This document shows positions 4,657 to 20,985 of a DNA stretch of 56,217 bases, in pieces. The first letter of the stretch is position 1. Each line of letters begins with the position of its first letter. The position numbers were made by a program, and so were the translations under genes. Source of the DNA: a candidate division Kazan bacterium RIFCSPHIGHO2_01_FULL_44_14 (GTDB taxonomy: Bacteria > Patescibacteriota > Kazan-3B-28); assembly GCA_001771185.1 (NCBI GenBank), contig METB01000001.1, positions 252,631 through 308,847 on the forward strand, in the 5' to 3' direction. The notes under the pieces are model-generated. The model ran no database searches and was not told the origin of the DNA. It saw only the letters and a program-made list of their open reading frames with translations.

Positions 4657-4813
4657 TCACATCCCTCCAATTTCAAAGAACTTCTTAGGTACTCCTAAGA
4701 CGAATTTACTTTACATCTAAACCCAAAAATCCGCAACTGGTGCTTATATTCTCGGTTAGTGGCAACGCCATGCTGTTCAACAGAATCTACGACTGGGGAA
4801 ATCCTTCCTGCGT

Positions 4814-5059
4814 TCAATCTCGAAACAGATGTTTATTGGCAAAGGCCTTGCCAGAATGTGATTTTAGGTATTGCTCAAATTCTTTAGCAGTATTCTGTTT
4901 CTCAAAAGCTGAATAAAAAATCAAATCCCAGGGTTTGTATTTGGCAGTATATTTCGACTGTCCTGTATTGTGAGCCTTTACTCTTTGCTTTAACTCATTG
5001 CTAAATCCAACATAAATCCTACCATCAACATGGCTTCTGATAGTATAAACGTAATACAT
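4814..5059 (-). CDS. Small GIY-YIG nuclease (SLX1/UPF0213-like), copy A
   Basis: MYYVYTIRSHVDGRIYVGFSNELKQRVKAHNTG...KPW...E; the likely start is ATG 5059, since the longer track ORF reads through a repeat leader. Confidence 0.9.
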   Translation of the reverse strand: MYYVYTIRSHVDGRIYVGFSNELKQRVKAHNTGQSKYTAKYKPWDLIFYSAFEKQNTAKEFEQYLKSHSGKAFANKHLFRD

Positions 5060-5243
5060 ATTTTGATTATATGCCCATGCTTCGTTCTGTGAACTACGCA
5101 GGGCAGGTTCGCTCCCTGGGTGCGACTCTACTGTTTCAATCAAAACGAAAACAGCCCGAAAGGGCTTTTCCGTTTTGGTGGTGCATTCTGGATGAAGTGG
5201 GAACTTGGTTGAGGGAAAATGGTCGGCAATTCGACCAGCTGTC

Positions 5244-6476: not shown

Positions 6477-6542
6477 ATATCAAGGATATCAGTTCCAATA
6501 ACACTTTGCTGTCATAAAATAAACTAATCCCACAAAGGAGAT

Positions 6543-6785
6543 TTAGAATAGGCGCTTGTTGGCAAAGGCTTTACCGGAACCAGCTTTCAAGTAGGTTTCG
6601 AATTTTTCAGCTTGAGTCTTGGTCTTGAAGGCGATATAGCAAACCACATCCCAAGGTTTGAATTTACTGGTGTGGGGAGATTGTCCGGCATTGTGAGATT
6701 TTAGTCGTGCTTTCAAATCGGAAGAACTGCCAATGTATGTTTGGGATTTATCTTTATGACTTTTGAGCAAATAAACATAATACAC
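6543..6785 (-). CDS. Small GIY-YIG nuclease, copy B
   Basis: MYYVYLLKSHKDKSQTYIGSSSDLKARLKSHNAG...KPW...SGKAFANKRLF; GTG start; clear paralogue of copy A. Confidence 0.9.
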   Translation of the reverse strand: MYYVYLLKSHKDKSQTYIGSSSDLKARLKSHNAGQSPHTSKFKPWDVVCYIAFKTKTQAEKFETYLKAGSGKAFANKRLF

Positions 6786-6923
6786 ACTTTTAGTATGCTC
6801 TACTACGTTCTGCTTTACAGCAGAACTTCGAAGGGCAACCTTCGCTATTTATCTCTACATAAAATCTGTGCCATCAGCACACCTTGAGCGGCGCAGCCAA
6901 CCGTAGCTCGATAGAGCGAAGGT

Positions 6924-7297
6924 TGGTGGAGCTGGGGGGATTCGCACCCCCGTCCAGCGAACGATATCTACTAGCTTCTACATACATAGTCGATTTGTTG
7001 GGTATCCATTGTTATCCTCAAACCGACAAAGCAATAACAACTTAAGCCACTATTATCTTAGTTCTACCCAATGGCCGAGTAGAAAGCGGCTCGAATAATA
7101 TAACACCGCTATTCCACCCATCCGAGCAGAGGTGGGAGCGATGGCACTAGCAATTAGGCCAGTGCTGGCGCGAAAGCAAAGCTTTCGCTAAATGCTTTGT
7201 TGGCATTTGTAGTTTGGTGTGATTTTGCGTTACGACACCACTAACGGTATGCGACCAAGTAGTTATCAAAGTCCACTGTCGAAAGCTATACAGCCCC
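6924..7297 (-). ncRNA. ssrA: tmRNA (one-piece, ~374 nt), predicted tag (A)ANKAFSESFAFAPALA
   Basis: 5' GGGGCTGTATAGCTTTCGAC; 3' GGACGGGGGTGCGAATCCCCCCAGCTCCACCA; acceptor GGGGCTG/CAGCTCC with G3.U70; tag frame 7204..7154. Confidence 0.95.
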
Positions 7298-19085: not shown

Positions 19086-19193
19086 ATGACCTCCTATTAT
19101 TCCCCCTGACCCTGGTTTCAGTGTATCATAAACCACGAAAGGGGTTCATGACGCCGCCATAGGTCATGTAAAGGGATGGGGATAAATTGACTT

Positions 19194-19250
19194 GCGGGTG
19201 TGGTTCAATGGCAGAACCTGCCTACCGGCAGGCAGGCACGTCCCGCCCCA
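19194..19250 (+). pseudogene. tRNA remnant whose anticodon and T arms are replaced by a REP palindrome
   Basis: GCGGGTG TG GTTC AATGGCA GAAC + CCTGCCTACCGGCAGGCAGG (19217-19236) + CACGT CCCGC CCCA. Confidence 0.6.
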
Positions 19251-19256
19251 GATCCA

Positions 19257-19330
19257 GTGGGATTAGTACAATGGTAGTATGCAACCTTCCCAAGGTTGAG
19301 ACGCGAGTTCGATTCTCGTATCCCACTCCA
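19257..19330 (+). tRNA. tRNA-Gly(CCC)
   Basis: GTGGGAT...CAACC TTCCCAA GGTTG...GCGAG TTCGATT CTCGT ATCCCAC TCCA. Confidence 0.95.
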
Positions 19331-19541
19331 ATCTAAAAACCTGGTTTACATAGATAAAACTGGGGACCCCGAAATGGTCTAGTTTCGACAAAAGAAGGAA
19401 CGAACATTTTGGGGAAGAGGAACAACGCCGAGTCCCAATAGGTCAGTGAGTTTACCGAACTGACCGTTAAGACGAGGCCGTTGCGACGAGACGGCGGGGC
19501 CCCACAGCAGTGGGGATACACTTCTCGTATCCCACTCCAAT
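19313..19541 (+). mobile_element. ~190-bp element bounded by a 20-bp duplication of the tRNA-Gly 3' end
   Basis: ttctcgtatcccactccaat at 19313-19332 and 19522-19541. Confidence 0.6.
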
Positions 19542-19598
19542 ACCCAAAGAAAAAAGCCACAAAAGATAAGTGGCTTTTTTGAAATGAGTTTGCCAGGT

Positions 19599-20015
19599 TT
19601 AGTCGTGAGCCGAGCAAGTTTTGCGGGCTTGCTGGACGAGATATGTCCTGAAAGTCGGCAGAAGATTAGCTTTCTTCACTGACTGCTCAAAACACTCAAC
19701 GAGGGTCGTGTTGTGATACAACTCTCTAAGACACTGATCAAAATCCCGCTTGGTTTGACTCAGAATCCATTCGAGCTGTTCTCTAACCCCTTCTCCAAAA
19801 AAGTCGTACTTTGCCTGGTCGATAACCTGTTGGATTGCCTCCCAGTCATTATGCAACTGTGCTCTTTTTACCTCTGGCGTTTCATCGCGACCACGAGTGA
19901 GGTCGCTTGACCGACGAAGAAAGGTCAGCGGTAAAACCGATTTAAACTTGGCAACTAATTCACTAAAGTGCATGCTACTCACACACATCACCTCCCAAAG
20001 ATGTTTGTGGGCCAT
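19599..20015 (-). CDS. Hypothetical helical protein
   Basis: GGAGG RBS before ATG 20015 (MAHK...); preceded by a REP-like hairpin at 20058-20128. Confidence 0.55.
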   Translation of the reverse strand: MAHKHLWEVMCVSSMHFSELVAKFKSVLPLTFLRRSSDLTRGRDETPEVKRAQLHNDWEAIQQVIDQAKYDFFGEGVREQLEWILSQTKRDFDQCLRELYHNTTLVECFEQSVKKANLLPTFRTYLVQQARKTCSAHD

Positions 20016-20168
20016 AAAGACCTCCCCCACCTTATCTGACGGCGGGAGATGTGTCAACCCGGTAGAGCAAATTTCATATATCCGTAGAGGATATCGGCAC
20101 AGAGCGCAATGAAATTTCTTCTACTGGGTAAACCCTAAAATAAAAATTGTTCTGATGGACAATTCTCA

Positions 20169-20368
20169 TTTTCTGGCGGGAGCGACGGGACTGTATCCCC
20201 AATAGGATTGGGCCCCGCCGTCGGACTGCATTAATGGGACTGTAGCACTGTATATTTTGGCAGTCCTCCTAGCAAACCCTTGCTTCGCACGGGTTCTCGC
20301 CCACGTCGCTCTAAACAAAAACATCCCTTATAGGATGTTTCCGTTTTTCTGGCGGGAGCGACGGGACT
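20169..20368 (-). mobile_element. ~150-bp element bounded by a 24-bp duplication of the tRNA-Asp 3' end
   Basis: ttttctggcgggagcgacgggact at 20169-20192 and 20345-20368. Confidence 0.6.
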
Positions 20369-20426
20369 CGAACCCGCGACCTCCTCCGTGACAGGGAGGC
20401 GCTCTAACCAACTGAGCTACGCCCCC
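20350..20426 (-). tRNA. tRNA-Asp(GTC)
   Basis: Reverse complement GGGGGCGTAGCTCAGTTGGTTAGAGCGCCTCCCTGTCACGGAGGAGGTCGCGGGTTCGAGTCCCGTCGCTCCCGCCA. Confidence 0.96.
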
Positions 20427-20448
20427 TCCCGCCCTAACTAGAACCCGC

Positions 20449-20985
20449 TTATTTTAGTATATCTACCCAGATAACGCCAGGGTCGTCTGGGTCGGTCTGT
20501 AGACGGTACAGAACGCCCTTAGTCAAATGAATAAAGATAACCGGCGACTGATCATTGGCTGTTTCTTGTTTGCTGATTTCTATATTTCTAATAGGTCCAC
20601 GGTTTATCTCTATAACGGATTGCCCATTGAAAACATTCTCCCCGGCATCATCTTGGCGACTAGTGTCGTACATCGTCAAGTATAATGCCTTAATGGGATC
20701 ATTGACTGGGCTTTGAACAGCTCTCACCGGTGGCGTGGCAATGTCTTCTAGCATGCTGGGTCGATTCATTTGAGTGATTATTTTTACCCGATAGACACTG
20801 TCTAATTCCTCCCATGCAATGTCTCGAAGCAGATGAAATCCGCCTGTCTGGCCTATCTCCTGCACATTGCCGGTAAAACCCTCTCGGGTGGCTCGTTGAA
20901 CAGACCAGCTAGTCGATATAACATACACCGAGACAAAAATACCCAACAGAACAATTACACCTACGATCCTTAGTAGAAGTTTCAT
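20449..20985 (-). CDS. Membrane-anchored hypothetical protein (AMIN-like beta domain possible)
   Basis: N-terminal TM; ends DPGVIWVDILK; ATGA overlap with the upstream gene. Confidence 0.7.
   Translation of the reverse strand: MKLLLRIVGVIVLLGIFVSVYVISTSWSVQRATREGFTGNVQEIGQTGGFHLLRDIAWEELDSVYRVKIITQMNRPSMLEDIATPPVRAVQSPVNDPIKALYLTMYDTSRQDDAGENVFNGQSVIEINRGPIRNIEISKQETANDQSPVIFIHLTKGVLYRLQTDPDDPGVIWVDILK

Follow-up and report, generated by a model that had tools for sequence, protein, structure and literature searches.

The window analysed here, a stretch of 56,217 nucleotides, is taken from the 699,981-bp single-contig genome of the candidate division Kazan bacterium RIFCSPHIGHO2_01_FULL_44_14 (GCA_001771185.1, contig METB01000001.1, positions 252,631 to 308,847; genome G000 in the following). 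It contains two intact tRNA genes, tRNA-Gly(CCC) and tRNA-Asp(GTC), each followed, ~180-210 bp in the 3' direction, by a second copy of its own 3' end; we call this copy the stub, and the conserved, folded sequence that abuts it the module. The elements built from these, referred to as cassettes, have the layout intact tRNA, variable trailer with terminator, module, stub, original flank. The locus is composed as follows (SL-0, SL-I and SL-II denote the hairpins of the module, R1 one of two covariance models described below, ORF an open reading frame, MFE minimum free energy):

19257-19330, + strand: tRNA-Gly(CCC), intact (ARAGORN; Rfam RF00005, 65.4 bits)
19331-19360, + strand: tRNA-Gly trailer, whose first 14 bases resemble, in a comparison by eye, the flank of the element-free tRNA-Gly(CCC) in genome G011 of the same genus
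19361-19489, + strand: nested structured repeat of ~125 nt ('E' family, GGGGACCCCGAAATGG...GACGA; blastn)
19490-19521, + strand: 3' terminus of the Gly module, with GACGGCGGGG, SL-II (CCCCAC at 19500-19505, loop AGCA, GTGGGG at 19510-19515) and ATACAC (R1, 54.9 bits)
19522-19541, + strand: Gly stub, an exact copy of tRNA-Gly(CCC) nt 59-76 (19522-19539) with flank AT (repeat search; 16/16 over nt 61-76)
19556-19580, both strands: bidirectional terminator-like hairpin, GCCAC-9 nt-GTGGC, with T6 (read from the sequence)
19599-20015, - strand: ORF of 138 aa between the two cassettes, just downstream of the Asp stub (ORF listing)
20169-20192, - strand: Asp stub, an exact copy of tRNA-Asp(GTC) nt 58-76 (20192-20174) with flank GAAAA (repeat search; 16/16)
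20193-20229, - strand: 3' terminus of the Asp module, with GCAGTCC (SL-I 3' strand), GACGGCGGGG, SL-II (CCCAAT-CCT-ATTGGG) and GATAC (R1, 43.6 bits; fold)
20230-20305, - strand: 5' part of the Asp module, with SL-0, the SL-I 5' strand and the 30-nt AT-rich SL-I loop (sequence, MFE fold, family alignment)
20306-20349, - strand: tRNA-Asp trailer with a terminator-like hairpin at 20319-20340 (terminator scan)
20350-20426, - strand: tRNA-Asp(GTC), intact (ARAGORN; Rfam RF00005, 71.7 bits)

A repeat search of the window returns an exact direct repeat of 20 bp at the Gly locus (19313-19332 and 19522-19541, TTCTCGTATCCCACTCCAAT) and one of 24 bp at the Asp locus (20169-20192 and 20345-20368). In tRNA numbering, the Gly copy covers nt 59-76, from the last T-loop bases to the CCA end (18 nt, with 19313-19330 as its source), plus two flank bases, and the Asp copy nt 58-76 plus five flank bases; the initial annotation, made by a model from the sequence alone, had described both repeats as copies of the T-loop-to-CCA end, which is correct for the repeats as such, while their outermost bases belong to the flank. 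Directly 5' of each copy stands GACGGCGGGG, followed by a 6-bp hairpin and G/ATAC; in the longer form GACGGCGGGGCC-hairpin-GGGGATAC, this amounts to a shared motif of 30-31 nt at 19490-19520 (+) and 20192-20222 (-). The hairpin stems of this motif, CCCCAC/GTGGGG at Gly and CCCAAT/ATTGGG at Asp, differ by compensatory changes, so that the annotation's second claim, a common motif with a covarying stem, is borne out by the comparison of repeats, motifs and hairpins. The 12-mer GACGGCGGGGCC occurs exactly twice in the window, with 0.23 near-matches expected, and the full motif only twice in the entire genome; the coincidence of duplicated tRNA ends with a shared motif at two tRNAs is thus real and far beyond chance. 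Apart from the two genuine tRNAs, ARAGORN and Rfam detect no tRNA or tRNA-like gene at the two loci, and Rfam at its gathering threshold finds six tRNAs and the transfer-messenger RNA (tmRNA) in the whole window, with no other family. Between tRNA and stub (19331-19541 and 20169-20349) there is no ORF, and specifically neither an integrase nor a GIY-YIG ORF, and a promoter scan of 19100-20550 yields no sigma-70-type promoter.

The two sites belong to a larger family. Following a pattern search, we made a covariance model of 41 positions (R1), and a second one of 113 positions for the whole module (R2). R1 yields 36 sites, spread over 9 of the order's 26 genomes, with 23 of the sites in G005 (7), G002 (9) and G006 (7); R2 matches 11 genomes in a phylum-wide sample of 401, each of them from this order (candidate division Kazan) and nearly all from the family to which the source of the window belongs. 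At 28 of the 30 loci examined, a tRNA gene lies 108-922 nt upstream on the same strand, 17 of the distances falling within 108-152 nt, and altogether 17 tRNA species carry the module. The bases after the motif match at least 13 of the 16 nucleotides 61-76 of the upstream tRNA in 17 loci (all 16 in 13 of these), against a mean of 9.2/16 for the non-cognate tRNAs of the same loci; five further stubs are 3'-truncated copies of 6-11 nt and the remainder are decayed, so that the duplication of nt 59/60-76 is seen in 22 of the 30. G000 itself holds three more, more diverged copies, behind tRNA-Ala(GGC), tRNA-Tyr(GUA) and tRNA-Ala(UGC), the one at tRNA-Tyr(GUA) having a 13-nt stub that abuts tRNA-Thr. 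The search for further instances and for their adjacency to tRNAs, which the annotation had proposed, therefore reveals many in 9-11 related genomes, and the motif is neither confined to two sites nor scattered without regard to tRNAs. These ORF-less cassettes behind tRNA genes form a lineage-restricted family, marked by a terminal module that is conserved and shows covariation; full-text literature searches gave us no published description of such elements.

The conserved unit, as seen in an alignment of 32 distinct copies, is a module of ~100-125 nt with three covarying helices and four parts. SL-0 consists of GAACCC, a variable inner stem of 3-5 bp, a GAA triloop and GGGTTCG, with the motif GCGAAGCA between GAACCC and GGGTTCG; its inner stems are compensated (TGCC/GGCA, ATGC/GCAT, ATGT/ACAT, TTGGC/GCCAA). 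SL-I has a stem a of the form CRY/RYG (CGC/GCG, CAC/GTG, CGT/ACG, CAT/ATG) and a stem b of the form CYGC/GCRG, also CCAC/GTGG, the two being separated by an asymmetric internal loop in which both strands contain GA, and enclosing an AT-rich loop of ~28 nt with conserved TATAAA TTTGTTG. SL-II is a 6-bp hairpin found in ten different versions, all perfectly complementary. The fourth part, the terminal sequence, reads GGGGAWACA in subtype A, to which the window's copies belong, and GGGAAAWTC in subtype B, overall GGGRAWWYA. RNAalifold, run on a plain MAFFT alignment, had first predicted these pairs; in the model-fitted alignment 94.9% of the cells are paired, falling to 35-56% when the partners are slid against each other, and double changes occur in 41 cells compared to 11.5±4.1 in shuffles (0/500 reaching this number). 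On the tRNA-sense strand G-T wobbles outnumber A-C mismatches by 17 to 5, which hints that this is the strand that folds, either in RNA form or as single-stranded DNA. For four copies, MFE folding gave z-scores between -0.7 and -3.1. Many copies have a decayed antisense tRNA 3' half on their left side. The left end, be it trailer or GGTTCG, does not recur inverted at the right end, GGGGAWACA; terminal inverted repeats are thus lacking and the element is not a classical miniature inverted-repeat transposable element (MITE).

Within the window, the Asp copy shows all three hairpins in a diverged form in its MFE fold (SL-0 as GAACCC-GTGC-GAA-GCA-A-GGGTT, 20296-20275; SL-I 5' strand as GGACTGC, 20266-20260), and just upstream of its module lies a decayed antisense copy of the tRNA-Asp T arm and acceptor (GAGCGACG...GAACCC). 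In the Gly copy, SL-II is fully paired (6/6), but the E repeat stands where SL-0 and most of SL-I would be, two thirds of the module counted from its 5' end, and alignment to the module in the R2 alignment begins only at ACGGCGGGG. The hairpin-rich segment of 150-190 bp reported by the annotation thus exists at Asp as three hairpins, but it is not a single unit: the conserved module measures ~100-125 nt and the Gly segment holds a nested repeat. This repeat is 93% identical to genome positions 331030-331154 and 341368-341496 (blastn), and its GACGA end abuts GACGGCGGGG; the E family (GGGGACCCCGAAATGGTCTA...GACGA) has about eight more, weaker copies, members of the family directly preceding tRNA genes (Ser, Lys), rpmA and a site-2-protease-like gene. 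The hairpin at 19556-19580 closes both the Gly cassette (+) and the 138-aa ORF (-); it is not listed by the consensus terminator scan because its loop has 9 nt.

Comparison between genomes indicates gain, loss and spread. In G005, the copies behind the Gly, the Ile and two Glu tRNAs are almost identical over ~90-100 nt, from GGTTCG to the stub, while their left flanks (trailer, terminator, SL-0 interior) and their stubs differ; two more copies, behind Asn and Ser tRNAs, are more diverged. Judged from this near-identity, the spread is apparently recent. The orthologous tRNA-Gly(TCC) locus of genus g4 occurs in three states: in G007 it is empty, the tRNA being followed directly by the flank that comes after the stub in G005; in G005 it has trailer, module and a 17-nt stub, the insert relative to the empty site being a cassette plus one stub; and in G006 it has a different ORF-less cassette, which starts with GTCTTCGC immediately after CCA, has a stretch of 23 identical nt in common with the leader of one of G006's GIY-YIG cassettes, and closes with a 13-nt stub behind a degenerate module terminus (CCCCATAG..AATAGAGAAACATG). 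The empty site which the annotation had suggested looking for in relatives is therefore found in a congener of G005; for the two loci of the window, a search for closer relatives via the neighbouring MBL-fold gene returned only matches of at most 45% identity on metagenome contigs. In the window's own genus, both tRNA-Gly(CCC) and tRNA-Asp lack a module in G011, and in G012 a truncated module follows the terminator of tRNA-Gly(CCC). Other cassettes hold genes: contig C47 of G002 has the array tRNA-Glu(UUC), module, stub, 134-aa ORF, module, stub, where both stubs read CCC for CCA, so that one must have been copied from the other and not from the tRNA, and in G010 a 243-aa ORF lies between tRNA-Ala and module plus stub. 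Behind tRNA-Glu(UUC), G005 has a module and G004 an unrelated repeat with an 18-nt stub. Because of the three states at tRNA-Gly(TCC), the differences at G011 and G012, the array, the G010 ORF and the two occupants of tRNA-Glu(UUC), the interval from the tRNA 3' end to the stub can be seen to behave as an exchangeable cassette slot. The repeat at this last locus (L004, 2094-2312, G004) is of a different family (..GTGATATCTATATCAC..GATGAGATTGAACG..), which ends directly in the tRNA 3'-end copy and also occurs in G000 behind tRNA-Leu(CAG) (genome 181800-182092, -), there followed by tandem 38-nt units that each have a GCCCACCA end; more than one element family thus uses the slot.

The closest relatives of the module that we find are cassettes encoding a GIY-YIG nuclease of ~80 aa. 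The tmRNA cassette of G006 has the order tmRNA, GTCTTCGC...GCGAAGCACGGGCATATAAT-N7-ATG, 80-aa GIY-YIG ORF, TAA-CTGCAGTCAGCAGGGAAAATC, ATCCCCCCAGCTCCACCA, the latter being the last 18 nt of that tmRNA; its terminus, hairpin-GGGAAAATC, and its junction position at nt 59 are those of subtype-B modules. In G000, a GIY-YIG cassette behind tRNA-Ala(GGC) (444.8 kb), which directly follows a module plus stub, ends in ..CAGCAGGGAAATC and a tRNA-Ala stub, hairpin-GGGGAAACAATT terminates the GIY-YIG gene at 662.3 kb and hairpin-GGGAAATTT the one at 196.8 kb, and a gene of the 662-kb type on contig C56 of G002 ends like its counterpart; at all four of these ORFs, the end is formed by a hairpin followed by GGGAAATC/GGGGAAACA. 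The window itself contains two GIY-YIG cassettes stacked behind the tmRNA (4790-5060 and 6540-6925, both -), separated by an EEP-nuclease/methyltransferase gene; at the end of the distal cassette stand GCAGGAAGGATT and a truncated tmRNA stub, TCCCCAG, and its leader contains CGAAGCATGGG-CATATAAT, a motif that the module has as well. The module in turn keeps the leader motif GCGAAGCA..GGG and a TATAAT-like box, and the SL-I loop of subtype A, TTTGTTGGGTTTA, matches the YVGF codons of the GIY-YIG ORF exactly over 11 nt. In ORF-bearing and hybrid cassettes the left junction is located exactly after CCA and the right one exactly at nt 59. None of the order's 26 genomes is without small GIY-YIG genes; there are 1-17 matches per genome, one of which may be UvrC.

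Because their 3' terminus, a hairpin followed by GGGRAAWY, and their nt-59 junction match those of the ~80-aa GIY-YIG cassettes, we read the modules as ORF-less relatives of the latter, and we hold it to be somewhat probable, on comparative sequence grounds, that the two elements of the window are non-autonomous or decayed members of such tRNA- and tmRNA-end cassettes, inserting with an 18-bp target duplication. Such cassettes would insert at the 3' end of a tRNA or tmRNA gene, duplicating its last 17-18 nt (nt 59/60-76) and leaving the gene intact; the modules would be moved in trans, now or formerly, by GIY-YIG nucleases, which are probably the agent. As to the chemistry, we infer a staggered opening of the target, formally the simplest solution, in which the top strand would be cut in the T loop at 58|59 and the bottom strand opposite 76|77; insertion and fill-in would then produce the 18-bp duplication and rebuild the tRNA, and recombination between the two 18-nt repeats would lead to loss or exchange of the cassette. 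Of the annotation's proposal, non-autonomous mini-elements that target tRNAs and carry a conserved terminal signal, the essence thus survives in the family, its tRNA linkage and the empty site; its analogy to integrases and their att sites probably names the wrong enzyme class, since one module serves 17 tRNA species, its copy number is independent of large serine recombinases, and its terminus is shared with GIY-YIG cassettes.

Several observations weigh against this derivation. The sequence shared by the G005 copies starts at GGTTCG, which corresponds to tRNA nt 52-57, and not at CCA, so that a plain 18-bp target-site duplication around the whole interval misfits the most recent spread; a core of ~90 nt may instead spread, or be homogenised by gene conversion, between pre-existing stub-bearing scaffolds. 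Identity extends 2-9 nt beyond CCA in five places (both Asp flanks, the Gly flank, the Arg locus of G004 and the tmRNA of G006), so that the right-hand boundary is not always exactly nt 76, and we know of no precedent for an 18-nt staggered cut among GIY-YIG enzymes. No nuclease gene lies in or beside the two elements of the window, and across the genomes the modules are not near GIY-YIG genes, the link consisting in shared termini and not in adjacency; GIY-YIG genes are abundant also in genomes of the sister family that lack modules. Of the order's 30 best GIY-YIG loci no more than two have the terminus, and R1 gives a single weak match among the 30. On the 5' side the likeness comprises only the short motifs named above and one hybrid ORF-less cassette, and the SL-I stems have no counterpart in ORF-bearing copies, so removal of an internal segment from a known full-length cassette would not by itself yield the module.

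A search for scaffolds with an uninterrupted stub returned one suggestive case, a tRNA-like fragment 23 nt behind tRNA-Val(UAC) (genome 183820-183880, -) with an uninterrupted T arm, an end in GAGTCCACCA and GCCAGCTGGCGAAGTCGCA before it, which may be a stub-bearing scaffold without the ~90-nt core. Separately, NNCTTCGC.. stands right after CCA at many tRNAs of G000 (for example Ile-GAU, Gly-UCC, Ser-CGA, Arg-UCU and Ala-CGC) and at its tmRNA. The GIY-YIG cassette leader of G006 and G012 begins in this way (GTCTTCGC..); to judge from this resemblance, remnants of GIY-YIG cassettes at tRNA ends may be very common.

The covariation of three helices, including switches from G-C to A-U, would also be expected if module and stub were a functional structured RNA. 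This could be the product of a small RNA gene or an element acting in cis in the 3' trailer, such as a mimic of the tRNA 3' end with a G-run and C-run in place of the T stem and a free NCCA tail, which has been duplicated behind various tRNAs and whose stub is kept alike by gene conversion. The strand bias of the wobble pairs (17 to 5), the invariable orientation of the module along the tRNA, the conserved TATAAA box in the SL-I loop, the ability of the G-run before SL-II to pair with the C-rich 3' strand of the stub's T stem, and the terminator after the Gly copy all agree with this. Near-identical modules in G005 nevertheless carry different stubs, and pairing between module and stub is thus not conserved; 8 of ~27 stubs are truncated or decayed beside modules that are still intact; a terminator usually separates tRNA and module; each species has the element at a different set of tRNAs, and an orthologous site may be empty; the element is itself invaded by other repeats, by E in the Gly copy and by palindromes in the loops of SL-I and SL-II; and neither an Rfam family nor a sigma-70-like promoter is detected in the searches described above. 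We therefore regard a functional RNA as unlikely. Its special form proposed by the annotation, a tRNA-like RNA with a hairpin in place of the T loop, is weak, there being no 5' acceptor strand (folding module and stub together gives no conserved acceptor pairing), and it too meets the differing stubs on near-identical G005 modules and the frequent truncation of stubs.

An 18-bp repeat of a tRNA 3' end is also the classic footprint of tRNA-targeting integrases, as in ICEclc, and the cassettes might accordingly be mini-elements or att remnants of a tyrosine integrase or of a large serine recombinase that targets tRNA ends, the stub being attR and the module a conserved P arm. Longer inserts with cargo genes between the tRNA and module plus stub, the antisense tRNA 3' halves to the left of many copies, and the presence in G000 of three large serine recombinases, one of which overlaps a tRNA-Asn 3' exon in antisense, would suit such an origin. 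We consider it quite improbable: the module-rich genomes G005, G002 and G006 have no match to PF07508, G005 being a 96%-complete single contig; near-identical modules occupy many different tRNAs per genome, where an integrase lineage normally has one target; the recombinase loci of G000 have no module; and identity starts only 2 nt inside the T loop, so that the 7-bp overlap region there is not shared. Large serine recombinases were rejected as the agent, as 23 of the 36 modules reside in the three genomes that have none, and their number is uncorrelated with that of modules. The recombinase that overlaps a tRNA has 521 aa (genome 473202-474767, -), its last ~30 codons being antisense to the 3' exon of the intron-containing tRNA-Asn, with a methyltransferase gene behind it. 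Very unlikely, in our estimate, is an RNA-mediated origin, in which the stub would have been copied by a reverse transcriptase, through tRNA priming or template switching, from a mature tRNA or an 18-nt 3' tRNA fragment and then fixed beside the tRNA gene. Both boundaries of the stub are RNA landmarks, nt 59 lying just after position 58, which when methylated is a known stop for reverse transcriptases, and the other boundary being the CCA end, at which identity stops in most pairs; reverse transcriptases of the type of diversity-generating retroelements (DGR) occur in 18 of the 26 genomes, including G000, G005 and G004. They are found without modules in sister-family genomes, however, and G002 and G006 yielded none; several pairs stay identical for 2-9 nt beyond CCA; in the G002 array, the stubs share the CCC mutation with each other and not the CCA of the tRNA; poly-A or other hallmarks of retro-insertion are lacking; and the orientation of stub to module is opposite to the prediction of simple tRNA priming. 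All tRNA genes here encode CCA, hence there is no CCA stub behind a CCA-less tRNA gene. Reverse transcriptases (PF00078), widespread, of DGR-like size and uncorrelated with modules, were likewise rejected as the agent.

Several known systems resemble the cassettes in part. Free-standing GIY-YIG homing cassettes (Seg and Mob of T-even phages, such as SegB in the T4 tRNA cluster) are likewise small, selfish and tied to tRNA genes; unlike these, the intact Kazan relatives encode only a stand-alone GIY-YIG domain of ~80 aa, without the DNA-binding domains of classical homing enzymes, and the elements of the window have no ORF. To our knowledge, phage Seg genes have neither a target duplication nor a structured terminal module. 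With MITEs and other non-autonomous derivatives (Correia/NEMIS, palindrome-associated elements (PATEs) of IS200/IS605) the modules have in common that they are short, gene-less and strongly folded, with several near-identical copies per genome, presence/absence polymorphism, mutual nesting and, on the 3' side, an end like that of ORF-bearing cassettes; they differ in lacking terminal inverted repeats, in their one fixed orientation relative to the target gene, in a duplication of 17-18 nt that is functional since it restores the tRNA, and in a target that is a gene feature (T loop to CCA) and not a short sequence word. Integrative elements that target tRNAs (islands with P4-like integrases, ICEclc with its 18-bp tRNA-Gly repeat) show the same succession of intact tRNA, element and a repeat of roughly the final 18 nt of that tRNA, and also have gene-less mini-versions in the form of CIMEs, their ORF-less att-flanked derivatives, whereas the modules occur at 17 different tRNAs, without an integrase, in elements of 180-220 bp and with a conserved three-helix part that abuts the stub. 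A more distant parallel is offered by the transposable tRNA introns of Thermoproteales, archaeal elements described as lying inside the tRNA and being spliced via bulge-helix-bulge motifs (Fujishima et al. 2010, as cited in PMC10714607). As far as this account goes, they resemble the modules in that similar short sequences recur at one structural position, the T loop among others, in many different tRNA genes; in the bacterial case the tRNA is uninterrupted and the module lies behind it. The modules thus fail the defining tests of each of these systems, having no ORF, no terminal inverted repeats, no single-target integrase and no intragenic position.

The Kazan-group genomes, members of the candidate phyla radiation (CPR) with sizes of ~0.6-0.7 Mb, nonetheless tolerate several families of tiny selfish cassettes around single-copy tRNA genes. 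The cassettes illustrate how residence at an essential gene can be harmless, the last 18 nt of the tRNA being rebuilt and the old copy pushed downstream, and they provide a natural series for the study of the mechanism, from the empty site via the ORF-less module and the ORF-less hybrid to the nuclease-bearing cassette and arrays with cargo. If the link to the nuclease is true, it would represent an unusually small, possibly structure-guided way of inserting DNA site-specifically at tRNA ends, and minimal genomes would have in it a means of exchanging genes. A bolder proposal, to which we attach little probability, is that module and stub are the targeting device of an undescribed class of mobile elements: the folded terminus (the GA-rich internal loop of SL-I, and SL-II) would recruit an ~80-aa structure-specific GIY-YIG nuclease, the stub would act as an exchangeable homing arm, insertion would proceed via the 18-nt staggered opening from 58|59 to CCA, and arrays of cargo, module and stub would constitute an integron-like platform for gene capture; a swapped stub would then retarget a cassette to any tRNA or tmRNA. 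For annotation, stubs and modules explain many unlabelled 'tRNA fragments' and conserved intergenic hairpins.

Some further observations concern neighbouring sequences. The 138-aa ORF at 19599-20015 has no Pfam match and may be cassette cargo or an ordinary orphan gene; in G011, an unrelated small ORF is located at the corresponding place behind tRNA-Gly(CCC). At eight loci (L021, L132, L122, L128, L130, L033, L023 and L028, in G005, G006, G010 and G002) palindromes of 15-45 nt are inserted exactly in the SL-I or SL-II loops, one of them a 36-nt palindrome of the type CCAGCCCGC..GCGGGC that is also found beside a GIY-YIG cassette at tRNA-Lys(UUU); small elements in these genomes nest preferentially in hairpin loops. 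Six nucleotides upstream of tRNA-Gly(CCC), at 19194-19250 (+), the window contains a tRNA-like remnant of 57 nt, with the acceptor start GCGGGTG, a D arm, a palindrome (CTGCCTACCGGCAGGCAG) that replaces the anticodon and T arms, and GTCCCGC-C-CCA; palindromes of the form CCTGCC..GGCAGG also occur behind tRNA-Ala(UGC) (genome ~537.26 kb) and upstream of a GIY-YIG gene on contig C42 of G002.

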